54,162 nt of DNA from a virus (IMGVR_UViG_3300022827_000011:1-54162), one strand, 5' to 3'. Shown: positions 1,052 to 54,162, counted from the first letter of the stretch. The notes: generated by a model from the letters alone, not told the origin. Program-made: numbers and translations.

Positions 1052-1387
1052 TTATAGATTGTCTATACGTTTTTGATAACGCATACGTTCTAAATTACCG
1101 ACTTCATGAGACCCGGTTCCGCACCAGTCGACTTCGTTTATAAGCTCGTTGATGATCAGTTTAATCTCTCTCTTGAAATCCTCTGCTTCTGTAATTGCTA
1201 TTTCTAAAGCAGTTTCTGCTTTTTCTACACGTTGCTCCCAATGCTGTATATACTCGCTAACAGCTTGATTACGGATGGCAACTTCAATTACCCCTCCTGT
1301 TTTCATCAGGTGTAGTTCATCTGCAATAAGTTCTTGCGGAGTTCTAGGAAGATTTGTACTTACGATATTATGTTCTGTATTGATCAT
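1052..1387 (-). CDS. hypothetical protein (coiled-coil)
   Basis: 111-aa ORF with AAGG SD and an upstream TTGACA-17-CATAAT promoter. Confidence 0.7.
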   Translation of the reverse strand: MINTEHNIVSTNLPRTPQELIADELHLMKTGGVIEVAIRNQAVSEYIQHWEQRVEKAETALEIAITEAEDFKREIKLIINELINEVDWCGTGSHEVGNLERMRYQKRIDNL

Positions 1388-1495
1388 TTTACTACCTTGA
1401 TTAACATACTTTTATTATGCACAGATATCCTAATGATGTCAACGATTAATTTAGTAGTCGTAGTAGGTTCTTGTCCTACTGCATTTAAGTAATTT

Positions 1496-1570
1496 TGGTG
1501 CTACAGGAAGGTACCGCTCCTTCTACCACTCAGTTATCAACTGAGGCCCTCACTTTTCGGACTCTGTAAC
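1496..1570 (-). tRNA. tRNA-Ile(GAT), atypical D- and T-loops
   Basis: CTCAG-TTGATAA-CTGAG arm, paired acceptor stem, CCA; T-loop lacks TTC. Confidence 0.7.
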
Positions 1571-1695
1571 AATTTTCTATATTCTTCATTGAGATCAGCT
1601 TGATACTCTTACACTTGATCTACACAACTGTATTCATTACTTAGAAGATATGCTTTATAGAGTCAATTCATCTCGCAAGTGTATTTCCTAAATAA

Positions 1696-1770
1696 TGGTG
1701 AACCGGGGGAATTTTGAAATCCCGACACGAAGATTAAAAGCCTCCTGCTCTGCCTCTGAGCTACCGGTAC
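1696..1770 (-). tRNA. tRNA-Lys(TTT)
   Basis: CTTTTAA anticodon loop, cloverleaf, CCA. Confidence 0.85.
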
Positions 1771-1781
1771 ATGTTTGTGTT

Positions 1782-1865
1782 TGGTGGGAGTGGTCGGATT
1801 TGAACCAACTCACTTTACGAACTGATTTACAGTCAGCCACGCCTCTCCAACTGCGTCGCACTCCC
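1782..1865 (-). tRNA. tRNA-Tyr(GTA) copy 1
   Basis: CTGTAAA loop, long variable region, CCA. Confidence 0.9.
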
Positions 1866-1870
1866 CTATT

Positions 1871-1947
1871 TGGTGCTCTTGGTAGGACTCGAACCTACAA
1901 CCAACGGATTCGAAATCTGGTACTCTATCCAGTTGAGCTACCGAAGC
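1871..1947 (-). tRNA. tRNA-Arg(TCG) second copy, weak anticodon stem
   Basis: TTTCGAA loop; D- and T-arms intact; CCA; mismatched anticodon stem. Confidence 0.65.
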
Positions 1948-2166
1948 TTATTCGTGTGATGATTGTCGTGTCATCACATTTACGTCGCCTAACATAGTTA
2001 AGCAGACAATGTTAAAATCGCCTGCTATAACAGTTTTATCATAAATCCATATACAACTACAGATGCTGCCAACAACATCTTTTACCAACATATTAGGGCC
2101 GCCACTATTCAACATAACTGCTGCCCCTGGTATAATAGGTAAACTGGGCTCTATTCGTTTTTGCAC
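1948..2166 (-). CDS. YodC/DUF2158-like small protein
   Basis: VMLNSGGPNMLV...CIW matches the VxLKSGGPxMTV...CxW signature. Confidence 0.7.
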   Translation of the reverse strand: MQKRIEPSLPIIPGAAVMLNSGGPNMLVKDVVGSICSCIWIYDKTVIAGDFNIVCLTMLGDVNVMTRQSSHE

Positions 2167-2326
2167 CAGTCTAAGGTCGTTCTTGTTAAATTGTATTTGG
2201 ATTCTTTTACCTAGTTTGGGTGTGTAGTTGGCTCAACGCTACAGCGGCGCGATTTAACCAGTCAGCTATAACCGGTACCGTTATTCAGCCAGAAAATTCT
2301 TGTATGCGCCCGGATTCGCATATAGT

Positions 2327-2396
2327 TGGTAGTCAATGAAGGTTCTGACCCTACGTCTTTGAAATCCGGTACTCTATCCAGTTGAGCTAATCGGCC
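2327..2396 (-). pseudogene. chimeric pseudo-tRNA (Arg-like 5' half, TTTCAAA loop, unrelated 3' half)
   Basis: 5' half nearly identical to the Arg D-arm; 3' anticodon-stem strand missing; ends in CCA. Confidence 0.6.
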
Positions 2397-2419
2397 ATAA
2401 TATTTCTTTTTGTTATCTC

Positions 2420-2600
2420 ACATTGTTTAGAAGTGTTTAGCCGTAAACATCGGTAAGTTCCTAGGATTATCGATTCTCATTGTTGACTTATCTTGCATTT
2501 AGGTGGCCAAACCTGGTTGCTGCTAGAGTCGATTTAAGAACGTTCGCCATCTGTTCAGATAGAAACTGATCACAACTGACTAAACACATCTAAATAATGT
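2420..2600 (-). ncRNA. candidate 181-nt rod-shaped RNA (6S-like)
   Basis: 23-nt imperfect terminal inverted repeat, nested helices and a central bubble. Confidence 0.5.
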
Positions 2601-2675
2601 TGGTGTGCCGGGTGGGGGTTGAACCCACGACCTTGAGATTAAGAGTCCCTTGCTCTTCCACTGAGCTACCGGCGC
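2601..2675 (-). tRNA. tRNA-Lys(CTT)
   Basis: CTCTTAA loop, cloverleaf, CCA. Confidence 0.88.
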
Positions 2676-2743
2676 ATCGTTTGTCGGTTTCGTCTGTGTT
2701 ATGTTTTCGTTTCATTGTTTTCTTTCCTTTGTTATAGATGTAT

Positions 2744-2821
2744 TGGTCCAACTAACGGGTCCCGAACCTGTATTGATCTCATTGAAAGTAAGGGGTCCTA
2801 GGACATTTAGAAGATAGTTAG
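2744..2821 (-). pseudogene. degenerate tRNA-Glu(TTC)
   Basis: CTTTCAA loop and CCA, but many stem mismatches. Confidence 0.55.
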
Positions 2822-2880
2822 ATTGTGTGGTTGGCTGTCGACTTTCGTCCATTTAACCAGCAAGCTGGCACCGAAATTAA

Positions 2881-2943
2881 ACTCCTAGTAGGGATCGAAC
2901 CTACGCACATTTACTCGAATAAATATGAACCTTTCTTAGGAGC
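2881..2943 (-). pseudogene. D-armless tRNA-like element
   Basis: Acceptor GCTCCTA/TAGGAGT and T-arm GTAGG-TTCGATC-CCTAC; no D-stem, no CCA. Confidence 0.5.
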
Positions 2944-2980
2944 GGGCGGCATGACTTTCGAGATCATTGCCACTTGACTT

Positions 2981-3072
2981 TGGTGAGTTCCGGTGGAGTC
3001 GACCCACGTGCCGTTGTCAGGATGAAGACTGGGCTCCATCACTCTTACGCAAGAGCCTTACTTGCAGAACCC
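2981..3072 (-). ncRNA. tRNA-like RNA with acceptor stem, T-arm and CCA but non-canonical central domain
   Basis: GGGTTCT/GGAACTC-A-CCA acceptor and GTGG-GTCGACT-CCAC arm. Confidence 0.5.
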
Positions 3073-3088
3073 ATATTCTGCATTATTA

Positions 3089-3172
3089 TGGTGGGAGTGG
3101 ATGGATTTGAACCAACTCACTTTACGAACTGATTTACAGTCAGCCACGCCTCTCCAACTGCGCCGCACTCCC
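3089..3172 (-). tRNA. tRNA-Tyr(GTA) copy 2
   Basis: Near-identical to 1782-1865. Confidence 0.9.
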
Positions 3173-3265
3173 GTTATAGTATTCCTAGTAGATAATAATC
3201 ATTTGATATCTATGTTTAAGAGAAGTCTTGTCTACTGCGGATATCCTATAGAGTTGACTTGTTCT

Positions 3266-3342
3266 TGGTACAGCGTATGGGTATCGAACCCATCATCTCT
3301 AGGGTGAAAACCTAGCGACCACCCCGTCTAGTCCGACGCTGC
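3266..3342 (-). tRNA. tRNA-Glu(TTC)
   Basis: CTAGG-TTTTCAC-CCTAG arm, CCA. Confidence 0.88.
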
Positions 3343-3350
3343 ATTGTGTT

Positions 3351-3427
3351 TGGTGATGCTTCTTGGAGTTGAACCAAGGACCTTACCATTATGAGTGGTA
3401 TGCTCTTACCAACTGAGCTAAAACATC
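3351..3427 (-). tRNA. tRNA with CAT anticodon (elongator Met or Ile2)
   Basis: TACCA-CTCATAA-TGGTA arm, paired 1-72, CCA; lacks the initiator GGG/CCC stem. Confidence 0.88.
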
Positions 3428-3435
3428 AAATTTAT

Positions 3436-3519
3436 TGGACGACGGTACGTGAATCGAACACGTTACTTGTTAGTGCTATGGGTTTGCAATCCATCCCCTT
3501 ACCATCCAGGCCACCGTCG
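3436..3519 (-). tRNA. tRNA-Cys(GCA) with extended variable region
   Basis: TTGCAAA loop, U73 discriminator, CCA. Confidence 0.8.
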
Positions 3520-13815: not shown

Positions 13816-14043
13816 TTACCATTGGCTATATTTAAGTAATGCAAAGGTTAGATCCTTTGGTAATATACTACAATAAGGGCTGTTGATCCATGATTTAAAG
13901 TCGAGATTGACTCCGTTGATATAATAGGTTGCAGTACGATCTCTAGAATTCCAAACTGCCGGGCCATCTGTTCTATGTAACTTCTTATTATTCATCCATA
14001 TTTCGCTACCATTGCTTAATTTAATGCATGTACTATTTGACAC
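13816..14043 (-). CDS. single LHRxDGPA-repeat protein
   Basis: WMNNKKLHRTDGPA; distant paralog of the array at 50241-53138. Confidence 0.75.
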   Translation of the reverse strand: MSNSTCIKLSNGSEIWMNNKKLHRTDGPAVWNSRDRTATYYINGVNLDFKSWINSPYCSILPKDLTFALLKYSQW

Positions 14044-23333: not shown

Positions 23334-23590
23334 GTTGTGTTCCTTTGTTACTATTATCAGTGCTACACTAATACATTAGCACAAAGTCATGTTAGTGTCA
23401 ATACAACTGTATTATACTTTTCTGATTGAAAATTCGTTAGTATGATTAACATCACCGTTTTGGAGTAGAGCGTTTTGTATACTACTATTTAAACATCGCG
23501 AATGTGTGATTAACACAACACTAAGTAATCAGCCAATACAACTATGTTATATCTTTTTTCCGTTGGTGACATACAATACAGTTAGCCTAA

Positions 23591-23915
23591 GCAAGGGTAC
23601 AGCATGAAACACACTGTACCCTTGCAACTTTTCTGTTTCTAGGTAAGTTGCCAACCCAAGTAGCTTATGCCGCTAGGGCAAAGCTCTCAATAGATGCGTT
23701 AGTATTTGCATTTATCAAATTTATTGCGTTAACCGAGCTTTCGCCGGATATTAATCAAATATGTGTTTTAATCCACGTCGATCCTATTTATCGCCCATAG
23801 CGTTTATCATTTAGTTGTTTACAAGCACTACCTTGAAGATGTCAATCACCCGTCTAAACTAATGGTGGACGATCTGGGTACCGCCCCCAGGTCCGTTAAA
23901 TCTATTACATATTAT
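23591..23915 (-). ncRNA. ssrA: two-piece (circularly permuted) tmRNA
   Basis: Acceptor piece ending ATCGTCCACCA at 23863, intervening segment, coding piece starting GGGCGAT at 23796 (G3:U70 pair). Tag 23665-23709 = ANTNASIESFALAA*; closing hairpin 23591-23625. Confidence 0.92.
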
Positions 23916-23952
23916 CTAGGACAACAGCCAATATATCTCTGCTGAACATACT

Positions 23953-23983
23953 TATTTATAACATTACTCGGCGGAAGTGTCAA
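23953..23983 (-). promoter_or_regulatory. tmRNA promoter (sigma70 plus TATAAATA)
   Basis: TTGACA-17-TATAAA(TA). Confidence 0.7.
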
Positions 23984-29179: not shown

Positions 29180-30274
29180 TCAAATAGCACAAGATTCGCA
29201 TATTCCGTCATCGCTGTCTTCCGATGGCAATGTTGGAAGGCCTGCTAATTTGTTAACATCTAATTCGCCCTGACCGTCATTGGTTTGGAAGTAGTAAAGC
29301 TGCTTTCCTCCAAATTTGTAAAACATTAATAATTCTTGTAACATTACGCTCATTGGGATCTTTTCATCTTCGTAGAATGCCGGATTATGACTAGTATTTG
29401 TGCTTATACCTTGATCGATATATTTTTGTAATACTGCCATAATCTTCAAATATCCCTGCGGCGACTTTTGATCCCACAGTAAATCGTATTTGTTTTTTAA
29501 TCTTTTGTATTCGGGAACAACTTGTTTTAGAACCCCGTGTTTGCTTTGCTTAACGCTAATTAAACTACGAGGCGGTTCGATACCATTTGTGGCGTTAGCT
29601 ACCTGCGCTGATGTTTCTGCCGGCATTAAACAAGAAGTAGTTGCATTACGAATACCAGTTGCTTTGAGTTGTTTACGTAATCCTACCCAGTCTTGACGCT
29701 CGACATGAGGAACTAGTTCGTCAACTGCTTTTTTATAAGTTTGATTTGGAGTGATTCCTTGTCCGTATTTAGTTTGATCGACTCTTGTACATGCGCCTTT
29801 TTCTACAGCTAGATCTGCACTGGCTTTAATAAGCCAATAACTCCAAGCTTCGGCCCATTCGTCTACGAGTGCAAGTCCGTTAGCATTGATATGTTGATAA
29901 GTTAGATCGTTCTTTGCTAACCAGTAAGCAAAATTAATAATACCCACTCCTAATGGTCTAAATTCTTCGGTACTTAGTCGTGCAGCAAGAACTGGATAAT
30001 TTTGATAATCTAGTAATGCATCTAATCCACGAATTGCAAGTCTACATACTCTCTCAAAATCGTCTGTAGTCTTGATATTACCCCAATTTATTGCACTAAG
30101 AGTACATAAAGATATACGACCATCGGGGTCATTTAGGTCATTAAGTGGGCGAGTCGGAAGGTCAATTTCTGAGCAATTGTGAACCAGTATGCCATTTGCA
30201 TAAAAGTTTTCATTTCCTTCTACAGTGATGTCATATACCGGCTCGATTGTAGCTAATTTTGTTATTGTTATCAT
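29180..30274 (-). CDS. nrdA: NrdA C-terminal fragment fused to split-intein C-half (33 aa)
   Basis: MITIT...VYDITV...NFYANGILVHN|CSEI, then RPLGVG, ANATNGIEP, KYIDQGIS, KQLYY and C-terminal CESC; AGAGG SD. Confidence 0.93.
   Translation of the reverse strand: MITITKLATIEPVYDITVEGNENFYANGILVHNCSEIDLPTRPLNDLNDPDGRISLCTLSAINWGNIKTTDDFERVCRLAIRGLDALLDYQNYPVLAARLSTEEFRPLGVGIINFAYWLAKNDLTYQHINANGLALVDEWAEAWSYWLIKASADLAVEKGACTRVDQTKYGQGITPNQTYKKAVDELVPHVERQDWVGLRKQLKATGIRNATTSCLMPAETSAQVANATNGIEPPRSLISVKQSKHGVLKQVVPEYKRLKNKYDLLWDQKSPQGYLKIMAVLQKYIDQGISTNTSHNPAFYEDEKIPMSVMLQELLMFYKFGGKQLYYFQTNDGQGELDVNKLAGLPTLPSEDSDDGICESCAI
30176..30274 (-). mobile_element. split intein C-fragment (IntC)
   Basis: Blocks F (VYDITV) and G (VHN) followed by +1 Cys. 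Confidence 0.9.
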
Positions 30275-30354
30275 AATATTCTTCCTCTGTTCCAATTCCT
30301 AATAATCGGATGTGTTGCTTTAATATGTTTATTTTCTCGCCGCCTGTAATTCAT
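30271..30354 (-). pseudogene. 27-aa mini-ORF, possible homing endonuclease remnant
   Basis: MNYRRRENKHIKATHPIIRNWNRGRIL*; its stop overlaps the IntC ATG; AATAAATA upstream. Confidence 0.4.
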
Positions 30355-30399
30355 ATTTGCATTCCAGACTTATTTATTCATGTATGTACGGAGAAATTA

Positions 30400-32472
30400 T
30401 TACTTACAAATTAACAACACGTCGGTTTCTGTTAAGTCAACTGCCATCACATAACCGCGATTCTTAGTATAGATTAGATGATCGCCTGTACATTTAATCC
30501 TGACTCCTGCTGCATTATCTACAATTTCATATAATTCTGCTGCTGGGTTCATTAATGCAAAATTGGTAATTTTCTTGTATTCGGTTACATCTGTTTCAAT
30601 ATTATATGACCGTACAGCGACGCTATTATGTAACTTCATTAAGTTACCCAAGTCTTCGATGTTGATGCGTAACTTGTTATCGTCGGCAATAATGTCAATC
30701 TTTGTATCACCAGTAACACATAAATTTGACATCTTGATGGGTGCAAACTCTGGTAGGAAGCTGCCTTGTTCGTTGGCGTTGTCCACGTTCTGCAAATAGA
30801 TTCTGCCTGTAGACTTGCGTTCTTCCATGAATGCACTAAACAGATCAATTGCTTTAACCGACTTTTTGCGTACAGTTGGGTTGTGTTCTGCTGCTTCGTA
30901 TAGCTCACGGAATCGCGGTTGGTCTGCAAAGAATGCATCGTATAATCCCGGTACGTCACTAGGCGAAAATAATGTAATGTTACCGCCTTGAATTAATCTC
31001 TCGTACATTAGCTTATTAAATTGTACACCGTAATCTAAATGCCGAATTCGATTTTCTTCTGTGCCTTTGTTGTTCTTAAGCACCAGCATATCTTCTACTT
31101 CTAGATGCCATAGCGGATAGTATGCTGTAGCAGCACCGCCTCTTACCGAACCCTGGCTGTTATGAGTTAACACCATCGAGTCAGACACCGACGAACTTGC
31201 AAAGAATGTATTAGTGTCTTCTACTGTAATGTCAACATACCCTGTTGGATTTTGTTGTCCAACTGTAATCGAATATAAATGTACAATGCCATTTTCTGAA
31301 ATAACGTTGTCAAATTCTGTAAGTTCTTGTGGATATTTTTGTGTTACAACATCGTTATCTACAATCATAATTGGATGATTTACACTACAATTTATTACTG
31401 TTCCGTTTGTAAATTCTAGTCTAACCTGCCGGTCTTCTGTTACTAGTGTATCCCATTTGTTAACAACTTTTCGATATACAATATTTCCGTCTTGATATGA
31501 TTTAATTTTCATTCCGGTATTAAGATCTGCAATACGGATTTTTTTTGTGTTTGGATCAATAATATCTTCGTTGATTATTTCAACAATAGTATCCGGAGTT
31601 AGGCAGCAACTCTTTACAGCCGACTGGAACAACTTATAAAAGGGAATTACTCCTGTATGATATGCATCTCCCTTGCGAATTGGAGAACCGATAGCACGGA
31701 TACTGCCAGCGCCAATTCCAATACCAGCTTTTTGACTTACATACTTTACAATGGCACTGGAAGTAGCATTAATACTGTCTAAGCTATCTCCGGCTTCAAT
31801 TAGCACACAACTACTGAATTGGCGTTGTGGTGTACGTACACCTGCCATAACAGGCGTGGGTAAGCTAATATCGTGTTGACTAATTGCATCATAATATTCT
31901 TTAACCCATTTAATCCTAGTTTCAATGGGGTATTCCTGAAATAATGTAGCAGCAATCAATATGTAACACATTTGTGGTGTTTCAAAGATGTCTCCGGTGG
32001 CACGATTTTGTACCAGATACTTTCCACGTAATTGTTCCATTGCAACATAGGTAAGAGTTTCGTCGCGCTCGTGCTTAATAAAACTATTGATCTTTTCCCA
32101 TTCAAGATCACTGTATTTTGTAGTTAATTCGGGATCGTAGAATCCTGTAGCAGTATTACGGTCAACTAGTTGCTTGACAGTACAAGGAGTAAAACTACCG
32201 TATACTTCCTTACGTAGTGCATAATTAATTAGCCTGCCGCCAACATATTGATAATTCGGAGTATCTTCGTTGATAAGGTCGGCCGCAGCTTTAATTAACG
32301 TTTCTTGAATTTCTTTCGTAGTCATTCCATTATAAAACTGAATTTGACTCTTAATTTCTACTTCGCTTGGGCTCACTCCTGTTATACCTTCACATGCAAA
32401 AAATACCACTTGGTGGATTTTTTCAATATTTAGAGGTTCTTTCGTGCCGCCACGCTTAGTAACTTGAATCAT
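30400..32472 (-). CDS. nrdA: NrdA N-terminal fragment with cis mini-intein and terminal split-intein N-half
   Basis: ATP cone (VTKRGG..E), PTPVMAG, QFSSC, AGIGI, KSC|intein|SQG.VRGG, and SNL|CVTGDT... Confidence 0.95.
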   Translation of the reverse strand: MIQVTKRGGTKEPLNIEKIHQVVFFACEGITGVSPSEVEIKSQIQFYNGMTTKEIQETLIKAAADLINEDTPNYQYVGGRLINYALRKEVYGSFTPCTVKQLVDRNTATGFYDPELTTKYSDLEWEKINSFIKHERDETLTYVAMEQLRGKYLVQNRATGDIFETPQMCYILIAATLFQEYPIETRIKWVKEYYDAISQHDISLPTPVMAGVRTPQRQFSSCVLIEAGDSLDSINATSSAIVKYVSQKAGIGIGAGSIRAIGSPIRKGDAYHTGVIPFYKLFQSAVKSCCLTPDTIVEIINEDIIDPNTKKIRIADLNTGMKIKSYQDGNIVYRKVVNKWDTLVTEDRQVRLEFTNGTVINCSVNHPIMIVDNDVVTQKYPQELTEFDNVISENGIVHLYSITVGQQNPTGYVDITVEDTNTFFASSSVSDSMVLTHNSQGSVRGGAATAYYPLWHLEVEDMLVLKNNKGTEENRIRHLDYGVQFNKLMYERLIQGGNITLFSPSDVPGLYDAFFADQPRFRELYEAAEHNPTVRKKSVKAIDLFSAFMEERKSTGRIYLQNVDNANEQGSFLPEFAPIKMSNLCVTGDTKIDIIADDNKLRINIEDLGNLMKLHNSVAVRSYNIETDVTEYKKITNFALMNPAAELYEIVDNAAGVRIKCTGDHLIYTKNRGYVMAVDLTETDVLLICK
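30403..30720 (-). mobile_element. split intein N-fragment (IntN, 106 aa)
   Basis: Block A CVTGDTKI, block B CTGDH; ends RGYVMAVDLTETDVLL then stop. Confidence 0.9.
31159..31605 (-). mobile_element. contiguous mini-intein (149 aa, no endonuclease)
   Basis: CLTPDT start, CSVNHP block B, YVDITVEDTNTF block F, THN|S end. Confidence 0.9.
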
Positions 32473-42628: not shown

Positions 42629-43951
42629 TTAACGAACTCCGTCCCATTGCGGTATCGCCTTGTAGCCATTTAATCCCAGCTGCTGTTGATAGTTTTTCCA
42701 ACTCGGCGGACTCTGTCTGATTGCGTCCTCGCCTGGTACCCATCTAGATTTTAAAATTTTTGTAGCATACATCAATGATGCAAATGCGTCAGTTGCGATT
42801 GCAGGCTCTCCTTCTTTAAATGGTTTCATGCCTAATGACCGAGACGCATATTGATACGAACTCCTAGCAGATTGAGCAATAAGAGTTTCGAGAGCAGGTA
42901 CTGGACCTTTGTAAAACGATTGTGCTATTTTCACTGCGCGTTCCGGCGAGCCTTTTACATAACTTTTAATAAATTCCTGTTCTTTATTATCGTCGGATTT
43001 TAAAATTCTTCTTATATCCATTGTTAATTCGTCTGGCGCGCGTTGAAAATAATACGCTAACTCTTTACCGGAGAACGGGTGTAACAAGAAATCAAAATTT
43101 GCCTCAGTGGCCATTTCTCCTAAATTGTCGTCGTCGTCGTCTTCGTAGTCAGGCGAAGTCTGATCTGCTTCACGCTGCACAAAGTTAACTAACTGGTCTA
43201 ACACTTCATACATAGCATCTAACTTACTTTTAAATAAATTTGACGTTATTGGGTTTTGATCTATAAAATATTCTGCATCAACTGAGCTTAATGGCAAATC
43301 TTGTGAATCCATAAACTGTCCAGTTTCAAAATGAAACTGAAATTTACCTTTACGTTTTTTATCATACCATATGTATAATGATCCGTATTTGTTATAAAAG
43401 TTAAATTGGTTTTTCTTTTTGGCCGCTGTACACCATTTGGTACCACTACCGAGTATACAACTAGCCTCTTTGGTTTTAGGAACACTGAGTATCCCTAGTG
43501 GTCCATTATACAAAACATTAACATCGTCAACTGCTTCGTCACTAGGTGCTGCAAGTTCGGTATTATCAAGTTTGCGAGAAAGTTCGGCTAGCGTATTCCA
43601 GTTGTATTGATTAATATCGCTATTGATTTCTAGTCGTTTATGCTGTCCTTTAGTTTTTGTAAATATCGTTAACTCGTCCTCTAGTTTGTATAAATCTTCG
43701 TACTTCATTGCGTTTTTAGTAAATTGTTTAATTATCCATACTACAAATTGTTTATTAACTGTAGGGTCGGCATCTTCTGCAGCAGATATCACAGTTAATA
43801 CAATTTCTTCGTCACTTTTATTATTGGTTATACTTTTAAGATACGTATCGGATTTTGCACGGGTTACTATAGCCGAAGTTGTTGCTAACACGGTTTTTGT
43901 TCTATCGTATTCAAATAGTGTAGTTTCTGTAATAAATTCTATGTATCTCAT
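42629..43951 (-). CDS. large hypothetical protein with ASC..G.GT.WCT motif and C-terminal helical repeats
   Basis: 440 aa; shares a domain with 48222-49592. Confidence 0.8.
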   Translation of the reverse strand: MRYIEFITETTLFEYDRTKTVLATTSAIVTRAKSDTYLKSITNNKSDEEIVLTVISAAEDADPTVNKQFVVWIIKQFTKNAMKYEDLYKLEDELTIFTKTKGQHKRLEINSDINQYNWNTLAELSRKLDNTELAAPSDEAVDDVNVLYNGPLGILSVPKTKEASCILGSGTKWCTAAKKKNQFNFYNKYGSLYIWYDKKRKGKFQFHFETGQFMDSQDLPLSSVDAEYFIDQNPITSNLFKSKLDAMYEVLDQLVNFVQREADQTSPDYEDDDDDNLGEMATEANFDFLLHPFSGKELAYYFQRAPDELTMDIRRILKSDDNKEQEFIKSYVKGSPERAVKIAQSFYKGPVPALETLIAQSARSSYQYASRSLGMKPFKEGEPAIATDAFASLMYATKILKSRWVPGEDAIRQSPPSWKNYQQQLGLNGYKAIPQWDGVR

Positions 43952-46868: not shown

Positions 46869-48158
46869 TTATTTATCAAGCTTTGGATATACAACGCGCC
46901 CGATTGGTGATTCTATTTTGAGTATACGAGTCTTGCCGGAAAACTTTACATCTCGGTCGATGCGACGAGTATTTGCTCCTTCGCCTCTAGTATCGGGAGA
47001 AACTTGCCTCATTAATTTTCCAAGTAATTCTTCCATGTTTTCTCTGATAGAATCAAACGCGTCAAACCCAACTGCATTCCATCGATCTCGAGGATCGCTG
47101 TACGTACTTGCGCGTTTTAATAATAGTATGGCCATTTGTTTAATAATATCAAAGGCCGCCTGTCTAGGAGTGCTATGCTTTTTTAATATTACTATAGTTT
47201 CTGTCGCTATACTATTCGATGCCTTGTCAAGGTTTGCTATCATTTCATCAATTGCCCATCCTTCGTCTGGATAATTCATTCCGTCGTACGGCGATTTTTC
47301 TTTTGCAAATTTTCTTTCAAAGTCTCGAGGTATTATATTGCTGGATCGATTTGGAGCCTTTTGTGCTAGGGTACGCATGACTTTTTTAGCAGCATCTGAT
47401 ATGGACGCTGCAATTCCGTCTTCGTCGGTGTCGGAGCTGCCTTTTACATATTGTAGCGTTATCAATGCCGGATATCCTCCATGAGTGCCTATTGCATCAT
47501 TTGCAATTTCCTTGGCAAACTCTACATTGTCGGCTACGTATACTCCGCCCATACTAGCTGTGCTTGCACCGTAGGTGTCGGTGTCGTATGTTTTCTTAGG
47601 AGGTCGAGCCAATAGTCCATTTTTAAGTATACTAGGCACCAATGCACTACTAGTTCCGTGATACATTATTTGAGTGCGCTGTTGCTGACGTTCGTATATC
47701 TTTGTAGATTCAAGTAATACATCGAACTTTAATCGTAAATATGTTTTAAACTTTTCAAAATTAACAGTGTTGTCAAATATATAAAGTTGCGAATACGAAA
47801 GCTTTCTCCGACGAGAATCTGGATAAGTTTTATCATTGCTAAACGTATAATTGTTGCTTGTAATTTTTTCTAACACTGCCTGCGACGCATTACCTAGTAT
47901 ATGCAATTGGCCAGTGGCATCTAACATTAAGAACATGTAATCGTAAGCATTTCCAATTTGTGCATCTTTGATTGCTAGTGTTTGTAATTTTTCTAAAATT
48001 TTAATACTCTTTTGATCAACTGATTCGCAAAGTGTAACTCCTATCAATTCTGCTTCAACTAAGTCAAGGTACAACGAGTAATCTTGTATGCCATTAAAAT
48101 CTTCTAATATTAACGGATAGTGATCTATAGAAAAGTTGTGATATCTCATAATAGTCAT
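46869..48158 (-). CDS. protein with ADP-ribosyltransferase-like domain
   Basis: MYHGTS...ILKNGL...GVY motif. Confidence 0.55.
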   Translation of the reverse strand: MTIMRYHNFSIDHYPLILEDFNGIQDYSLYLDLVEAELIGVTLCESVDQKSIKILEKLQTLAIKDAQIGNAYDYMFLMLDATGQLHILGNASQAVLEKITSNNYTFSNDKTYPDSRRRKLSYSQLYIFDNTVNFEKFKTYLRLKFDVLLESTKIYERQQQRTQIMYHGTSSALVPSILKNGLLARPPKKTYDTDTYGASTASMGGVYVADNVEFAKEIANDAIGTHGGYPALITLQYVKGSSDTDEDGIAASISDAAKKVMRTLAQKAPNRSSNIIPRDFERKFAKEKSPYDGMNYPDEGWAIDEMIANLDKASNSIATETIVILKKHSTPRQAAFDIIKQMAILLLKRASTYSDPRDRWNAVGFDAFDSIRENMEELLGKLMRQVSPDTRGEGANTRRIDRDVKFSGKTRILKIESPIGRVVYPKLDK

Positions 48159-48221
48159 TAATCCTTGAGTTGCATGTATATTGTAATTACATCGCCTATT
48201 TTCATGTTAATTCATCTCTAA

Positions 48222-49592
48222 TCATTCCGGGCGGATCATTCCAGCCAGCCAGGCATACTTAGGATCCATTGCTATTAGTTCCCTTGCAATTTTGTTGTTG
48301 ATGATATTTCCATTGGCCATAAAATGAACAGCAATTTGACGGGCACCGCGATCGCCGTACAAGTCTATGAACCATCGATAAAACTCATAGTCCAACGAAA
48401 TTCTATTGTAGACAAATTGATCTAGCCAGCTAGAAATTGCTCCAAATGTGATTGTTCCGTCTGGGCGTCGATCTGGACCGCCGTCGTCTTCGTCCATTTC
48501 TAAATACGACGTGGTAGCACGTATAATAGTTTTTGTCGAGACCGGGCCATTAACATTAAAGATTATATAAGGGCTACCTTCTAATGCATAATTTACTATT
48601 TCGTCACTAGGATTAGCAATATCTCTTATCAAAAACGGATCTTGGTCAATTACTATGCGCTGCACATCTTCGCTAGGATTGCGTATATATTGCAGAGCCG
48701 CTGACGATTTTTTAACAGCTTGCAAGGTACTACGGTCAGTTAGATTACTAATATATTTTAGCATAAATAATGCGTGATTTACGACCAATGTTTGCATGTT
48801 TTGATCTAATTCTATCATATTCTCGTCATTAATTAAAACATACATATAAGCTCTAGTGAATACTGGATCTTTTACAGATAGTAACGATGTTTCAATACTC
48901 GGATCTCTTTGAGGGTTGTCCACTCTTTGATTTTTATTACGAAATTCTTCTATTACCCGCTCTAATTCTTCTTTGTCATATCTCATATTACTTCTTGCAG
49001 TATTTACTTTGCCATAGGCTTCTGTACCACTGGACACCATTTGAACATACTTGTCACTGTCTATGCCGGTTTGTCTGTCAAATTCCTGTTTGGTTAAGGT
49101 TCTATCATTTTTGTCAAAATACTCCATTTCGTCATGTACTGCAATTGCCCATTTGTTGCCTGTTTGTTTTTGTAAGAAGTAAATTAAAGTAACACCTGTG
49201 TCTCTGAAATATTGTTCAAAATTACTTTGAGTTTGCTTAGTAGTACACCAGTCTGTATCTTTTCCATGAAAGCAACTAGCATCTTTGTTCAATGGAACTA
49301 CTATTAACCATTGGTCGTTTTCAGCTAGAATATGACTGTCGCCTTTTCCTACAGCTTTCTTTTGCTGAGTTTGACTCTTTTGTTGACTTTTTGCTGTGAC
49401 AAATTGTTGAAAACGAGACCAGTCTTGTTTTCCCCACCAATCGATATTACGCTCATTTCCTCGAACTTGATTTCTATTAACTAGTTCTTTGTAAGATGCT
49501 ATGATTTTATTTACAGCATCCGGATCTGCCGACTGTGCAAACTTCTGTGCTACTTCTTTATAACCTTCGACTATTATTTCGTAAACTTTCAT
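48222..49592 (-). CDS. large hypothetical protein with WCT domain and DUF4116-like repeats
   Basis: ASCFHG.DT.WCT; ALQYIRNPSEDVQ-type repeats. Confidence 0.8.
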   Translation of the reverse strand: MKVYEIIVEGYKEVAQKFAQSADPDAVNKIIASYKELVNRNQVRGNERNIDWWGKQDWSRFQQFVTAKSQQKSQTQQKKAVGKGDSHILAENDQWLIVVPLNKDASCFHGKDTDWCTTKQTQSNFEQYFRDTGVTLIYFLQKQTGNKWAIAVHDEMEYFDKNDRTLTKQEFDRQTGIDSDKYVQMVSSGTEAYGKVNTARSNMRYDKEELERVIEEFRNKNQRVDNPQRDPSIETSLLSVKDPVFTRAYMYVLINDENMIELDQNMQTLVVNHALFMLKYISNLTDRSTLQAVKKSSAALQYIRNPSEDVQRIVIDQDPFLIRDIANPSDEIVNYALEGSPYIIFNVNGPVSTKTIIRATTSYLEMDEDDGGPDRRPDGTITFGAISSWLDQFVYNRISLDYEFYRWFIDLYGDRGARQIAVHFMANGNIINNKIARELIAMDPKYAWLAGMIRPE

Positions 49593-49819
49593 AGTATCCT
49601 CTTAGTTATATGTTTACCACGTATGCGTTGATGCCAAAATATTCCCTTACTAGGAGCAGCAATCCATGCAGCATATAATGCTTTGTTAACATTTTGAACT
49701 CGAAATCTCCGTCCGTTACTCAATGCCATTACTACGCTCTGATTGGGATTTAATGTAATGTTAGTTATCCAGCTACTAACTACTGGCGCTTCGCACATAA
49801 TGATTTCAAATATCTTCAT
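49589..49819 (-). CDS. KTSC domain protein
   Basis: V.SSWI..I....NV...Y...I.APSKG.F....IRG. Confidence 0.8.
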   Translation of the reverse strand: MKIFEIIMCEAPVVSSWITNITLNPNQSVVMALSNGRRFRVQNVNKALYAAWIAAPSKGIFWHQRIRGKHITKRIL

Positions 49820-49838
49820 ATAAGTATTTATAACTTGG

Positions 49839-49867
49839 TTGACAATGTTGACAAAAAGTTATACATT
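49839..49867 (+). promoter_or_regulatory. sigma70 promoter for the first half of the repeat-gene array
   Basis: TTGACA-17-TACATT. Confidence 0.6.
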
Positions 49868-49920
49868 CACACAATTCAATTAGAAAGTAACAGAGCAGAT
49901 TTAATGAAAGCAACATATTA

Positions 49921-50244
49921 ATGAGAGTTACTACACTCGAAACTGCAAATAAAAACTGTAGAGTATATCAACTAGGCTGGTGTTATCCTATATATATCCA
50001 GAATTTTTACCATTTTGAAAAATCTAAGAGCGTACTGATCCGGACATTCGGCGATCCGGCTTTTAAATATCAGTTTAATAAATGCAGTCTTTCTGTAAAG
50101 GATAGGTACACCTACTACTATCCGAAACAACGACGTTGGTTTGCTGGTAATCGCCTGTGGAACAACACTTCGCCGCGTGACTATTGGCTAGTTTTTAGAA
50201 GCAATGCCGATAGAACACTGGCGCTATTGATGCTGCCTTTATGA
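49921..50244 (+). CDS. hypothetical protein
   Basis: Ends DRTLALLMLPL; ATGA-coupled to the array. Confidence 0.7.
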   Translation: MRVTTLETANKNCRVYQLGWCYPIYIQNFYHFEKSKSVLIRTFGDPAFKYQFNKCSLSVKDRYTYYYPKQRRWFAGNRLWNNTSPRDYWLVFRSNADRTLALLMLPL

Positions 50245-50666
50245 ATCCAGAAGTTGACGCATATGGCACACAAAGATGGTATGAGAACGGCAAACTACAT
50301 AGGATTGATGCACCTGCTTTAATATATGCAAATGGTGATCAATCTTGGTACAAGAACGGCAAACTGCATAGGATTGATGGCCCTGCAGTAATAAGAGATG
50401 GCACACAATCTTGGTACAAAAAAGGTGTACTGCATAGAACAGATGGTGCTGCTGCGATTTATGCAGGTGGTGATCAATTTTGGTACAGAGACGATGTACT
50501 GCATAGAACAGATGGTCCGGCTGTAATTTATGCAGATGGCACACAAGAATGGTACTTAGATAATATTCGTTACAAATTTGCCCAATGGATCGAGTTGACA
50601 CCACTCAACAATAATGCTAAGTTGTTGTTGCAAATCCAATGGAGCAACAATGAATCCAGTAGTTGA
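50241..50666 (+). CDS. LHRxDGPA (MORN-like) repeat protein 1, 4 repeats
   Basis: ~23-aa repeats of the form WYxNGxLHRxDGPAxIxAxG. Confidence 0.88.
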   Translation: MNPEVDAYGTQRWYENGKLHRIDAPALIYANGDQSWYKNGKLHRIDGPAVIRDGTQSWYKKGVLHRTDGAAAIYAGGDQFWYRDDVLHRTDGPAVIYADGTQEWYLDNIRYKFAQWIELTPLNNNAKLLLQIQWSNNESSS

Positions 50667-51066
50667 CAAATACGGAACACAACGGTGGTACACGAACGGT
50701 GTACTGCATAGGACTGATGGCCCTTCTGTAATATGGGCAGATGGTGATCAATTTTGGTACCTCAACGGCAAACTGCATAGAACAGATGCTCCTGCTGTAA
50801 TAGATGCAAGTGGTGATCAATATTGGTACAAGAACGGCAAACTGCATAGGACCAATGGCCCTGCTGTAATTTATGCGAATGGAGATCAACTTTGGTACAT
50901 GAACGATGTACTGCATAGGACCGATGGCCCTGCTGTAATATGTGCAAATGGCACACAACTTTGGTACCTAGACGATACTTTTTACAGTTTCGCCCAATGG
51001 CTCAAGTTGACACCACTCGATGATAATGCCAAGTTGTTGTTGCAAATCCAATGGAGTTCACAATGA
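50650..51066 (+). CDS. LHRxDGPA repeat protein 2, 4 repeats
   Basis: Start MNPVVD after GGAG. Confidence 0.88.
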   Translation: MNPVVDKYGTQRWYTNGVLHRTDGPSVIWADGDQFWYLNGKLHRTDAPAVIDASGDQYWYKNGKLHRTNGPAVIYANGDQLWYMNDVLHRTDGPAVICANGTQLWYLDDTFYSFAQWLKLTPLDDNAKLLLQIQWSSQ

Positions 51067-51254
51067 CTAATTATATTATTTGTATTATTAATTGGAACGT
51101 AAAGCATTTGCAGAAACAGTTACACGGGTGTCCTTATGCAATCGAATACAAATATAATAACGGTCGTGCATGTGATCATCGTATGGTTGTAAAATGCCGG
51201 GCATACAAATATCTAGTAGTCCGGCTCAGATTAGCCGGATTAATAAAGAATTAA
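51063..51254 (+). CDS. hypothetical protein
   Basis: ATGA-coupled, GGAG SD. Confidence 0.6.
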   Translation: MTNYIICIINWNVKHLQKQLHGCPYAIEYKYNNGRACDHRMVVKCRAYKYLVVRLRLAGLIKN

Positions 51255-51375
51255 TAGTTACAAGTATTTCTCATCAATGGTTTATAGGAGCAAACCTGTC
51301 ACATCGTAATAATAAAACTTATATTATTGCTTTTGTTAATCTTAATCACAGAAATTGGGCTTGTTTATTGTAAGG

Positions 51376-51558
51376 TTACTTAACAATCGGTAGTCGAAAG
51401 GTTAACACACTTCTAGGACCGCGAGTGGTATTAATTTTAATTTCGCCAGTTTTGTCAAAATATTCAATTTTAGTAATAACTGCTGATTGATTATTAGGAC
51501 CTACTAAAATTGTTTGACCTAGTTCCAGTTCTACGTTCACACGAGTAAGGGTGCTCAT
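51376..51558 (-). CDS. small hypothetical late protein
   Basis: AAGGAG SD and AATAAATA upstream. Confidence 0.7.
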   Translation of the reverse strand: MSTLTRVNVELELGQTILVGPNNQSAVITKIEYFDKTGEIKINTTRGPRSVLTFRLPIVK

Positions 51559-51595
51559 TATATTCTCCTTGACTTACTTGGTATTTATTCCTTGG

Positions 51596-51624
51596 TTGAC
51601 ATTGGTGTGTTAAAGTTGTATATA
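51596..51624 (+). promoter_or_regulatory. sigma70 promoter for the second half of the repeat-gene array
   Basis: TTGACA-17-TATATA. Confidence 0.6.
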
Positions 51625-51764
51625 ACAGTAGTATCTAAGCAATCAACTTTAATACAAAATACGTCTACTACAGTCTATGCATATAGATAACCGATACTAT
51701 CTGGTCCTTGAATTGATAGCATCTGTTCTAATTTTAAATAATGATAAATTTCAGTGGTGCAAAA

Positions 51765-52193
51765 ATGAATCCAATAATTGACAAATTTGGTACAAAGCGA
51801 TGGTACAAGAACGAGCTGTTACATAAAGACCACGGTCCGGCTATAATTTATGCAAATGGCTCACAAGAATGGTACAACAACGGTGTACTGCATAGAATGG
51901 ATGGGCCTGCTGTGATCGACGCGGATGGAGATCGATTTTGGTTCAGAGACGGCAACCTGCATAGGACCGATGGCCCTGCTGCAATTTATGCAAGTGGTGA
52001 TCAATTTTGGTTCAGGGACGGTGTACGTCATAGAATCGATGGTCCTGCTATAACATATGCAAGTGGTGATCAAGAATGGTACAAGGACGGCAAACAATAC
52101 AGTTTCACCCAATGGCTCGAGTTGACACCACTCAACAATAATGCTAAGTTGTTGTTGCAAATCCAATGGAGCGATCATGAATCCAGTAGTTGA
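51765..52193 (+). CDS. LHRxDGPA repeat protein 3, 4 repeats
   Basis: Start MNPIID. Confidence 0.88.
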   Translation: MNPIIDKFGTKRWYKNELLHKDHGPAIIYANGSQEWYNNGVLHRMDGPAVIDADGDRFWFRDGNLHRTDGPAAIYASGDQFWFRDGVRHRIDGPAITYASGDQEWYKDGKQYSFTQWLELTPLNNNAKLLLQIQWSDHESSS

Positions 52194-52536
52194 CGCACAT
52201 GGCACACAACGATGGTACATCAACGATGTACTGCATAGGACTAATGGTGCTGCTGTAATACTTGCAAGTGGCAAACAATATTGGTACAAGAACGGCAAAC
52301 TGCATAGGACCGATGGCCCTGCTGCAATTTATGCAAGTGGCACACAAGAATGGTACATGAACGGAGAACTGCATAGAACCAACGGTCCTGCTATAATTTA
52401 TGCAAGTGGCACACAATATTGGTACTTAGATAATATTCGTTACAGGTTCAACCAATGGATCGAGTTGACACCACTTGATGACAATGCCAAACTGTTGTTG
52501 CAAATCCAGTGGAGCAACAATGAATCCAGTAGTTGA
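52177..52536 (+). CDS. LHRxDGPA repeat protein 4, 3 repeats
   Basis: Start MNPVVD after GGAG. Confidence 0.88.
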   Translation: MNPVVDAHGTQRWYINDVLHRTNGAAVILASGKQYWYKNGKLHRTDGPAAIYASGTQEWYMNGELHRTNGPAIIYASGTQYWYLDNIRYRFNQWIELTPLDDNAKLLLQIQWSNNESSS

Positions 52537-52879
52537 CAAAGATGGCACACACGAATGGTACCTCAACGGAGATCTGCATAGGACCGATGGGCCTGCTGTA
52601 ATACATGCAAATGGTGATCAAATTTGGTATGAGAACGGAGATCTGCATAGAACGGATGGCCCTGCTGCAACTTACGCAGACGGCACACAAAGATGGTATG
52701 AGAACGGCAAACTGCATAGAATCAATGGTCCTGCTGCGATTTATGCAAGTGGTGATCAAGAATGGTACAAGGACGGCAAACAATACAGTTTCACCCAATG
52801 GCTTGAGTTGACACCACTTGATAATAATGCTAAGTTGTTGCTGCAAATCCAATGGAGCGATCATGAATCCAGTAGTTGA
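52520..52879 (+). CDS. LHRxDGPA repeat protein 5, 3 repeats
   Basis: Start MNPVVD after GGAG. Confidence 0.88.
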   Translation: MNPVVDKDGTHEWYLNGDLHRTDGPAVIHANGDQIWYENGDLHRTDGPAATYADGTQRWYENGKLHRINGPAAIYASGDQEWYKDGKQYSFTQWLELTPLDNNAKLLLQIQWSDHESSS

Positions 52880-53138
52880 CGAATATGGCACACAAAGATG
52901 GTATGAGAACGGCAAACTGCATAGAATCAATGCACCTGCTGCAATTTATGCAAGTGGTGATCAATTTTGGTACAAGAACGGCAAACTGCATAGAATCAAT
53001 GCACCTGCTGTAATATGTGCAAATGGTGATCAATATTGGTGCCTAGACCACAAACAATACAGTTTTAACCAATGGCTCGAGTTGACACCCCTCGATGATA
53101 ATGCTAAGTTGTTGTTGCAACTCAAATACAGTACCTAA
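52863..53138 (+). CDS. LHRxDGPA repeat protein 6, 2 repeats
   Basis: Start MNPVVD; ends LLLQLKYST. Confidence 0.88.
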   Translation: MNPVVDEYGTQRWYENGKLHRINAPAAIYASGDQFWYKNGKLHRINAPAVICANGDQYWCLDHKQYSFNQWLELTPLDDNAKLLLQLKYST

Positions 53139-53397
53139 TCTCAAACCAATCTAATAAGGATACTGCTGTGCAATCTTCAATCTCAAACCACTCGCCTGAG
53201 GAATTTCTCCACACCCCTACTTCTAAATGTAACTGAGCTTCTAGAACCCTTACTTGAAGAGGATCGACTTTTAGTCGATGTAATAAGGTTAATGGAGTAC
53301 TACTACCGGTGCATAAACTGCGTAGTCTATTCACCGGATCCTTTGAGAACCCAAATTTTACTGCGCCTGCGCCGTTACTGATACAATACAAATACAT
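53122..53397 (-). CDS. GIY-YIG-like (T5orf172/MUG113) domain protein
   Basis: YLY.I...VKFG.S.DP..RL..L.TG...E..LH...GEWF. Confidence 0.85.
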   Translation of the reverse strand: MYLYCISNGAGAVKFGFSKDPVNRLRSLCTGSSTPLTLLHRLKVDPLQVRVLEAQLHLEVGVWRNSSGEWFEIEDCTAVSLLDWFEIRYCI

Positions 53398-53440
53398 GCT
53401 GTACTTAGCTGAGACAAACTGATCTGTATAAGATTATGAT

Positions 53441-53723
53441 AAGGCCCCGCTGCTAACATACGCAAGTAACACATACACATAACCCAATGACCCCGCTGCT
53501 AACATACGCAAGTAACACATACACACAAACAAAAGGCCCCGCTGCTATAACATACACATACACACAAACAAAAGGCCCCGCGTCTAACATACACAATTAA
53601 TACATACACATAACCCAATGACCCCGCTGCTAACATACGCAAGTAACACATACACACAAACAAAAGGCCCCGCTGCTAACATACGCAAGTAACACATACA
53701 CACAAACAAAAGGCCCCGCTGCT
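53441..53723. repeat. ~46-bp tandem repeat with 7 CCCCGC cores
   Basis: Unit CCCCGCTGCTAACATACGCAAGTAACACATACACACAAACAAAAGG and variants. Confidence 0.9.
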
Positions 53724-53934
53724 AGGGAACAGCTAAACACTGCAATGATACTAAAAGACCTGCTAGGAATATGCTGTAATAACATACTAACACATATACA
53801 AAACAATGTCAAATAATTAAAAATAATTATACTTGCATACAGTGAGAACTCTAGTAGTGTAGAGTACGCTCTTATCTATTAAAGAACACGCAGAAGAAAT
53901 GCTTAAAACTTTTAGAGAGTACACGGTACGAGAA

Positions 53935-54162
53935 TGCTGGAAAACGCATAAGGAGATTCTGGAGAACGCAAGAAAAGTAAAGAAAAGTAAAGAAAAGTAA
54001 AGGAAAGTAAAGGAGATTCTGGAGAACGCAAGAAAAGTAAAGGAGATTCTGGAGAACGCAAGAAAAGTAAAGGAGATTCTGGAGAACGCAAGAAAAGTAA
54101 AGGAAAGTAAAGGAGATTCTGGAGAACGCAAGAAAAGTAAAGGAAAGTAAAGGAGATTCAGG
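53935..54162. repeat. purine-rich nested 10/30-bp tandem repeat running off the window end
   Basis: AAGGAGATTCTGGAGAACGC interspersed with 1-4 copies of AAG(A/G)AAAGTA. Confidence 0.9.

Follow-up and report, generated by a model that had tools for sequence, protein, structure and literature searches.

The window analysed here is the whole of the 54,162-base IMG/VR virus record IMGVR_UViG_3300022827_000011 (positions 1–54162). Between positions 50241 and 53138 it carries an array of six paralogous plus-strand genes, g1 to g6, that encode small repeat proteins. All six are intact and, as the original prediction had it, inspection of the open reading frames (ORFs) and of the repeats gave 4, 4, 4, 3, 3 and 2 copies of a repeat of about 23 amino acids (aa). 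The genes are the following:

50241–50666, plus strand: g1, 141 aa; N-cap, four repeats (one of 22 aa), two-helix tail and the out-of-frame extension NNESSS.
50650–51066, plus strand: g2, 138 aa; four repeats; C-terminus QIQWSSQ; no family gene behind it.
51765–52193, plus strand: g3, 142 aa; four repeats.
52177–52536, plus strand: g4, 119 aa; three repeats; the protein used for structural modelling.
52520–52879, plus strand: g5, 119 aa; three repeats; tail DNA 96% identical with the g3 tail.
52863–53138, plus strand: g6, 91 aa; two repeats; C-terminus QLKYST; its last 17 nucleotides (nt) overlap the convergent gene at 53122–53397.

The proteins are built on one plan, in which a 12-residue N-cap (MNPVVDxxGTQR) is followed by the repeats and then by a conserved two-helix tail with the consensus W[YC]xDxxxY.F.QW[LI].LTPL..NAKLLLQIQWS. 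Nineteen of the repeat units are 23 aa long and one, repeat 2 of g1, is 22 aa long, so that the tandem period is the one of about 23 residues that is typical of MORN repeats. At the DNA level, Tandem Repeats Finder reported periods of 69 nt within the genes and of 343 and 412 nt between them. Antisense ORFs across the array, such as that at 52448–52930 on the minus strand, were taken as by-products of the repeats.

The junctions g1/g2, g3/g4, g4/g5 and g5/g6 are alike. At each of them the two genes overlap by 17 nt, the second gene being in another frame, and the sequence GGAG (50641–50644, 52168–52171, 52511–52514 and 52854–52857) is found 5 nt before the next ATG. This GGAG is made by the W-S codons of the tail (..QIQWS), and the predicted arrangement, in which the QIQWS codons supply the Shine-Dalgarno motif and the gene overlaps the next start by 17 nt, was thus present at all four junctions. 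The overlap encodes the extra residues NNESSS or DHESSS, which are absent in g2 and g6, the two genes with no family gene behind them. Stop/start overlaps with a Shine-Dalgarno motif inside the upstream cistron are the layout of translationally coupled operons, and we infer that the junctions couple the translation of each gene to that of the next. The first gene, g1, is without a Shine-Dalgarno motif. In the leader of g3, the stretch from about −18 to −1 has remained similar to the tail-coding junctions seen in the other genes, with GGTG replacing GGAG, which suggests that a family gene formerly stood in front of it or that the duplicated unit extends that far. A search for the junction pattern of the array, in strict and degenerate forms, gave no match in viral contigs, and in metagenome contigs the single match, on a GC-rich bacterial contig, was a chance one. 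Fusion of neighbouring proteins by programmed frameshifting was also considered and rejected; the next start is in the +1 frame, and no slippery motif was seen by eye in the 17-nt overlap (no formal search was made).

The genes are arranged in two blocks, and both had been predicted to be promoter-driven. The features in front of the blocks and between them are the following:

49839–49867, plus strand: promoter-like site of block 1, TTGACA-17-TACATT; listed by the promoter scan; inside a stretch of about 42 nt common to block 2.
49921–50244, plus strand: ORF of 107 aa without a known family, with which block 1 begins; its stop and the g1 start overlap as ATGA.
51376–51558, minus strand: ORF of 60 aa of no known family; between both blocks; not a family member.
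51596–51624, plus strand: promoter-like site of block 2, TTGACA-17-TATATA; recognised by eye and by alignment; homologous to the block 1 site.

An alignment of both upstream regions extends over some 40 nt and takes in TTGACA, the 17-nt spacer and TACATT/TATATA, and the exact 10-mer TTGGTTGACA occurs in the window only at 49835 and 51592, once upstream of each block. The scan of the stretch listed 18 sites against 15.1 expected in shuffles, i.e., no excess, and its rule demands a T at the last −10 position, hence the block 2 site was not listed. No terminator-like site was found by the scan after g2 or g6. That each block stands behind its own promoter is a reasonable reading; the aligned upstream regions speak for this part of the prediction, and the sites themselves are consensus matches, one of them unlisted by the scan. 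Early expression is a possibility read from the host-type (sigma-70-like) consensus. The 107-aa ORF had no match in Pfam, PHROG, NCBIfam or PADLOC, and the exact protein was found on two contigs of the protein collection.

When the array genes were compared with each other, a patchwork emerged. Long self-alignments gave 75–81% DNA identity, i.e., about one base in four differs, and exact common tracts of 62 nt (g3/g5), 56 nt (g1/g3), 46 nt (g5/g6), 41 nt (g3/g4) and 40 nt (g3/g5) were present. Segments common to non-adjacent genes had been predicted, and in addition to the exact tracts they were evident in the tails, where g3 resembles g5 as given above and the DNA identity of g1 and g4 is 88%. 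On the other hand, the N-caps group g1, g4 and g6 (92–94%), and within the g3 tail the pattern changes from g5-like to g1-like and back to g5-like. The recombination analysis of the repeat units that had been proposed was carried out with two tests. In a pairwise homoplasy index (PHI)-type test on 270 alignable columns (N-cap and first repeat; last repeat and tail) with 63 informative sites, none of 5000 permutations reached the observed value at any of three window sizes. The longest-run test gave 0/5000 for 3 of the 15 gene pairs, namely g1–g3, g1–g6 and g3–g5, and about 0.02 for two further pairs. Since both tests were significant, gene conversion or crossing-over among the array copies is well supported as the probable source of the mosaic. 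Same-strand tandem paralogs and recombination among the copies, both present here, are two of the marks of an accordion-type multigene family.

A further mosaic protein of 96 aa (P0059), encoded on a 1011-nt metagenome contig, resembles g6 in its head, g2 where the tail begins and g5 at its end, DHESSS included. Judged by these segments, it is another shuffled member, belonging to a relative or to a part of the genome outside the window. Short metagenome contigs matching 50433–52780, at 1.6–2.3 times the phage depth, join pieces that resemble different paralogs, for example a g5-like N-cap and a unit like repeat 3 of g2. Additional family members are suggested, either beyond the fragment, which has a CheckV completeness of 15%, or in co-occurring relatives.

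Parts of the stretch were found in seven coded sequencing runs, all of them labelled salt-lake metagenome, and two of these runs contained variants of the array. In run X3, a 506-nt contig over 52928–53427 had 40 differences from the window, 35 of which were in g6 and 5 in the neighbouring gene. In run X4, one 268-nt contig with a depth of 4 led from g3 into the g4 N-cap with a jump from 52200 to 52682; owing to a 46-nt exact repeat it might equally land at 52887, in which case 686 nt, or two gene units of 343 nt, would have been lost in register. These two contigs are hints that the array is changing faster than its flanks. The original prediction had called the array expandable, and one low-depth contig and one divergent g6 allele do not amount to proof of that.

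Such comparisons also bear on the question of whether the array is an assembly artefact, produced by a mis-join or by the inflation of fewer genes. The array is about 1 kb from the contig end, beside tandem repeats. Metagenome unitigs break within it, at tracts common to paralogs, and no piece bridging a junction with 31 letters on both sides was among the matches listed, so that the gene order is without an independent check. In addition, a passage of a marine long-read study gives MORN-repeat proteins as 37-fold more abundant in long reads than in assemblies (PMC9238414). However, for unique parts of g1, g2, g3, g4 and g6, runs X1 and X2 contain contig pieces that agree with the window in every letter, at depths like those of the flanking 47-kb and 33-kb contigs (19–30 versus 28.9 in X1, 8–13 versus 13.4 in X2), although these runs may be the source sample of the record and their support is then not independent. 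Furthermore, the paralogs differ at about one base in four and have no exact common tract longer than 62 nt, and in the protein collection the exact g6 protein was found on three contigs of up to 115,173 nt. The exact g1–g5 proteins, with the start codons as chosen here, were not found in that collection, perhaps due to other starts chosen by the gene callers. We consider an artefact unlikely, the chance left to it being very small indeed.

The structure of the proteins was modelled from g4 with AlphaFold2, using an alignment of eight rows (g4, g5 and six homologs). The model had a mean predicted local distance difference test (pLDDT) score of 93.7 and a predicted template modelling (pTM) score of 0.84. 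It contains short paired strands at the repeat period and C-terminal helices at residues 91–97 and 102–115; the sole low-confidence part, with pLDDT below 50, is the last three residues, which are encoded in the overlap. The prediction of beta-hairpin repeat proteins is thus supported by a confident model. When the model was compared with the PDB by Foldseek, the list of weak matches was headed by MORN1, MORN4/Myo3a, junctophilin, radial-spoke and central-apparatus MORN proteins and SET7/9, and in an exhaustive VIA search, with Z of at most 6.4, MORN4 was found with Z 6.3 over 99 residues. Forty-eight matches at E ≤ 1e-3 were obtained from BFVD, among them proteins of uncultured Caudovirales, Atu_ph07 and a Celeribacter phage and giant-virus proteins labelled MORN. 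At the sequence level, sub-threshold matches to the Pfam family MORN_2 (PF07661) were seen in four of the six genes (E 1.7e-4 to 9.4e-3) and none in the other two. A sub-threshold DUF6745 (PF20530) match spans about 16–21 residues of the 206-position profile, and many homologs bear a precomputed DUF6745 label. NCBIfam gave only chance-level matches, far below cut-off, for the six genes, no PADLOC model matched any of them, and the PHROGs matches were to function-unknown families only. Going by the model, the fold of the array proteins is MORN-like, with scores below those of formal Pfam membership. A cytoplasmic location appears probable, as by eye there is no signal peptide or membrane segment at the N-terminus (no predictor was used).

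The family to which these proteins belong is very large and mostly viral. Of 4350 candidates from a word-indexed search, 4027 proteins had E ≤ 1e-3, and a full profile search of 1.84 billion representatives gave 35,593 clusters at E ≤ 1e-3, of which 3884 reached E ≤ 1e-30. In the ESM Atlas, the nearest clusters are 93–100% viral, 94–120 aa in length and unnamed, and the plan of cap, repeats and tail was also seen in the distant members P0017, P0020, P0036, P0042, P0070 and P0113. In a scan of one genome per prokaryote species, 27 loci were found, most of them without the same tail; the search pattern was narrower than in the viral scan. The latter, a profile-guided scan of viral contigs, gave at least 658 confirmed stretches, of which 76 loci were kept, many on contigs of 100–395 kb. 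At least two adjacent family genes were present in 36 of the 76 loci, at least three in 23 and at least five in 8, with a maximum of 16; these counts were made by simple motif count, and some of the 76 loci are near-duplicates. Such arrays are frequent in large viral contigs, and that of the window is not unusual for the family. The window itself holds a dispersed seventh member:

13819–14043, minus strand: family gene with N-cap, one repeat and a related tail (E 5.5e-8).

The number of repeats varies within every array, for example 3, 5, 4, 6, 3, 4, 3, 4, 2 in the array L029 and 4, 3, 8, 6, 3, 5, 2, 3, 2 in L082. The last gene has only two repeats both in the window (g6) and in L019, L029, L082 and L036, which may be chance. 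A related observation was made on an AT-rich viral contig (L010, 5125–10750) with at least nine tandem genes, each encoding a conserved head of about 75 aa (MFTLATDVQKII..) and 4–8 WYKNGxxHRDNDLPA repeats; it has the appearance of an array from a giant virus, its repeats belonging to the same superfamily.

The 17-nt overlap was absent from the other arrays surveyed (107 adjacent pairs in 66 distinct loci). Their junctions are lineage-specific and tight, with 8-nt overlaps (L019, L082, L069 and L036), ATGA overlaps (L029 and L059) or gaps of 1 nt (L045) or 4–5 nt (L053). In 75 of the 107 pairs an in-frame ATG was found between −20 and +15 nt relative to the preceding stop, in a survey that took the nearest ATG and is thereby biased toward small gaps. 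The median distance from the stop to the first histidine of the first repeat of the next gene was 74 nt, which leaves little beyond room for the N-cap. From these distances, tight coupling appears to be a family-wide habit.

No recurrent flanking family was found among the 82 flanking ORFs of 20 other arrays. Three of these arrays (L014, L029 and L074) adjoin peptidoglycan hydrolase genes, and bacterial hosts are therefore confirmed for those three. This neighbourhood, together with a passage stating that MORN repeats occur in phage endolysins (PMC9238414), could point to cell-envelope or lysis accessories whose repeats bind cell wall or membrane, a role that has been proposed for MORN repeats of some endolysins and of membrane tethers. 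Against such a role, no lysis gene lies beside the array of the window, 17 of the 20 other arrays are without a hydrolase neighbour, the N-terminus, again by eye, is without a signal peptide or membrane segment, and MORN1 bound no membranes in a published study (PMC7725318). We regard an envelope function as very improbable.

The repeat units differ from each other at a limited set of positions. Every one of the 20 units has W1, H8 and G20, and A18 is kept wherever position 18 exists, in 19 units; Y2, L7, R9, P13, A14, I16 and Q22 are changed in one or two units. The most variable positions are 3, 6, 23, 17 and 19, followed by 15, 21 and 10, and the predicted clustering of variation at a few repeat positions is therefore real in these 20 units. 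It also recurs elsewhere, as in nine other arrays positions 23, 17, 21, 15 and 6 are likewise among the most variable. The entropy profile of the array correlated with those of the nine others with Spearman coefficients of 0.41–0.68 (p < 0.05 in 8 of 9), in a comparison whose unit-picking pattern partly forces invariance at positions 1, 8 and 12–14 and largely at 9. A per-position dN/dS check had also been proposed. Crude ratios of non-synonymous to synonymous polymorphism (pN/pS), obtained from 20 short, non-independent units, were above 1 at positions 6, 15, 19, 21 and 23 and mostly near or below 1–2. On the strands that the A18-x19-G20 turn connects, variable and held residues alternate at positions 15/17 and at 21/23. 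Going by this alternation, positions 15, 17, 21 and 23 would be on one face of each hairpin.

It could be argued that such a pattern needs no adaptive explanation, the array being a by-product of unequal recombination with an unconstrained scaffold surface and with redundant copies kept perhaps for dosage. Surface positions vary most in any repeat protein, the pN/pS values are noisy, the family has no known function, and a published account of pandoraviruses describes, in the part drawn on here, giant-virus repeat families as unstable, strain-specific tandem duplications (PMC5995976). On the other hand, all six genes are intact, and frame residues, caps and coupling signals have been kept at about 75–81% DNA identity; moreover, the same positions vary in nine independent arrays, and arrays persist across many lineages. 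We find this explanation doubtful, the odds being clearly against it.

Taken together, the array probably encodes a repertoire of cytoplasmic proteins that bind other proteins, from genes that recombine with each other and are coupled in translation; we hold this reading with moderate confidence. The binding function is inferred because of the MORN analogy and the pattern of variation; MORN repeats have been described as protein-protein interaction modules (PMC7725318). In this scheme, host polymerase would produce two polycistronic transcripts from the near-identical sigma-70-like promoters. A ribosome finishing one gene would end on top of the next N-cap, with the GGAG from the tail codons serving the next start. 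Since the junction belongs to the repeated unit, unequal crossing-over would add or remove whole coupled genes, and a crossover shifted by 69 nt would add or remove whole repeats. Short-tract gene conversion, which has statistical support, would shuffle segments between the genes. Throughout, the frame residues W1, L7, H8, R9, G12–A14, I16, A18, G20 and Q22 would be held and some six to eight positions, mainly 3, 6, 15, 17, 19, 21 and 23, left free, so that each paralog would show a different surface to host or competitor proteins and all would have one tail in common. As for the conserved tail, it may do no more than cap the repeats, or it may be a handle common to the paralogs for one partner.

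Several points weigh against this reading. The best MORN_2 score was 21.9 bits against a cut-off of 29.6 and the best DUF6745 score 22.5 bits against 27. The Foldseek matches were weak (best E 1.7e-3, TM-scores 0.25–0.45), and in the VIA search MORN4 scored level with single-layer sheets of other kinds, among them TarM, the TCP10 domain and OspA. The predicted placement of the variable positions on one exposed face is a deduction from the alternation of residues, the pN/pS values are crude, and the nine-array comparison and the junction survey contain the biases stated above. The breaks of the unitigs and the lack of a bridging piece among the matches listed belong here too, and no RNA run is among the seven listed runs matching the stretch.

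A sharper form of the original idea, and a subset of the binder reading, would be a counter-defence or immunity repertoire in which each paralog neutralises a target of its own, be it a host defence protein or a toxin, in the manner of phage anti-defence proteins or of the YwqK immunity proteins that belong to bacterial polymorphic toxin systems. YwqK proteins carry a variant of the MORN repeat, MORN_2, and it is to this variant that the sub-threshold similarity of the array proteins points. The fixed frame, the free surface positions, the recombination and the occurrence of arrays in many large phages would fit an arms race, and the sigma-70-like promoters would permit early expression. However, none of the six genes had a PADLOC match or matched an NCBIfam antitoxin or immunity model, and for the YwqK-family model in particular there was no match at E ≤ 0.1. 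No toxin domain was found next to the array, whose neighbours are the 107-aa and 60-aa ORFs, a KTSC-domain gene and a T5orf172/MUG113 gene; no recurrent partner flanks the 20 other arrays, and the literature search gave no link between the family and defence. The anti-defence, antitoxin-like or host-takeover role that had been proposed was thus not borne out by the PADLOC and NCBIfam searches or by the genes beside the array, and in its counter-defence form it is, in our view, a minor possibility.

Going further than the binder reading, one may speculate that large phages maintain recombining libraries of mini MORN-like binders in which the ribosome-binding signal carried by the junction makes chimeras from unequal crossing-over instantly expressed, with a face that tracks rapidly changing proteins of host defence or of competitors. 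The hypervariable face would then consist of positions 15, 17, 21 and 23 together with the positions at the hairpin tip. Phages would then have a counterpart to the host-range gene accordions known from poxviruses and to the receptors that jawless fish build from repeats. We put it forward as a tentative idea with a small chance of being correct.

Among known proteins, the direct homologs are small phage repeat proteins with the same cap-repeats-tail plan (uncultured Caudovirales, Atu_ph07 and Celeribacter phage P12053L; PHROG 3481/8175; DUF6745), none of which has a described function. In Atu_ph07 the family gene stands alone at the one place inspected of nine. Eukaryotic MORN proteins (MORN1, 6t4d/6t69/6t68; MORN4-Myo3a, 6jle; junctophilin-2, 7rxe) are similar in the 23-residue period and the W..NG..H core and, as far as the weak structural matches go, perhaps in the elongated sheet of beta-hairpins. 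In contrast to them, the array repeats have their own LHRxDGPA loop and below-cut-off Pfam scores, and the array proteins are tiny (91–142 aa) and have two parts that those entries lack, the N-cap and the two-helix tail. The YwqK-type immunity proteins are likewise small, cytoplasmic, protein-binding repeats of the MORN_2 kind, and immunity genes also occur in arrays, whereas the family described here is viral rather than chromosomal and has no threshold match in NCBIfam or Pfam. The MORN, ankyrin and F-box families of giant viruses (Pandoraviridae and others) resemble the array as tandem duplications of repeat genes in large viral genomes, strain-variable in those families and perhaps in the array too; the array differs from them in its bacterial host, the lack of an F-box-like head, much shorter genes and overlapping, coupled cistrons. 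Strain-specific tandem duplications of these genes are described in a published section on pandoraviruses (PMC5995976), and repeat-gene duplications of amoebal giant viruses are covered in part of a review (PMC5753266). Our literature search found no description of such small-protein arrays in phages and no paper naming DUF6745, and 'MORN' occurs 0 times in the main text of a jumbo-phage review (PMC7824862).

The window is a fragment of a jumbo phage from a saline habitat. As the CheckV completeness is 15%, it is a piece of a genome of several hundred kilobases. It encodes 11 tRNA genes, a transfer-messenger RNA (tmRNA) gene and ribonucleotide reductase genes, and a 456-aa protein adjoining the array matches Salicola phage SCTP-2 (440 kb), a phage of a halophile, with 29% identity. 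The repeat proteins have matches in Celeribacter phage P12053L, at nine places of Agrobacterium phage Atu_ph07 (490 kb) and at a single place of an uncultured-phage record. The named kin are distant, as reflected in the SCTP-2 match and the family members in Atu_ph07, and a megablast search of 48000–54162 against the phage collection gave no match, although this collection, like those searched for the junction pattern, may lack records of the genome to which the window belongs. The host is bacterial, as judged from the Shine-Dalgarno motifs, the sigma-70-like promoters, the tRNA and tmRNA genes and the phage kin.

Just upstream of block 1 lies a divergent gene for a KTSC-domain protein of 76 aa (49589–49819, minus strand). 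On the other side of the array, the convergent T5orf172/MUG113-domain gene (53122–53397, minus strand, 91 aa) showed weak similarity to PDC-S57, a candidate defence model; such nuclease-like genes are reportedly found where boundaries of genetic exchange fall in phages. The contig ends in two non-coding tandem-repeat blocks, 53441–53724 (a 46-nt unit repeated 6.3 times) and 53950–54162 (nested units of 10, 30, 40 and 60 nt). Past the contig end, several different metagenome continuations were seen, with loose ends between 53452 and 54139, and the record probably ends here because of these repeat blocks with several continuations.

The proteins encoded at 48222–49592 and 42629–43951 (minus strand) both match PHROGs 17056 and 28193, of function unknown, and six places in Salicola phage SCTP-2 match the protein from 48222–49592, which looks like a second multi-copy family in the lineage. 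The tRNA cluster at 546–3519 contains duplicates of Lys-CTT, Arg-TCG and Tyr-GTA (two of each), and the phage-borne tmRNA gene carries the tag ANTNASIESFALAA; the tRNA and tmRNA regions are at 546–3519 and 23574–23955 (minus strand). The large subunit of the ribonucleotide reductase is divided between two ORFs of 690 and 371 aa (29180–32472, minus strand), and about 150 residues are inserted in the 690-aa ORF; this insertion has its match in a PHROG with the label DNA helicase and may be an intein.

The array is thus the phage form of a known viral theme, the repeat-protein multigene family, to which the 17-nt junction is its own twist. Such families are a recognised yet unexplained feature of giant viruses. 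Here, the theme appears in a bacterial-virus version with very small proteins, overlapping cistrons and mutual recombination, distributed over large viral contigs in their hundreds. Even without a binder function, the array would be a clean case of a tandem family that grows while staying expressed. If the proteins are indeed host-directed binders, they would be among the largest untested sets of phage-host interaction modules, and the design of cap, repeats and tail in about 90–140 residues would be an attractive natural scaffold, also for binder engineering.

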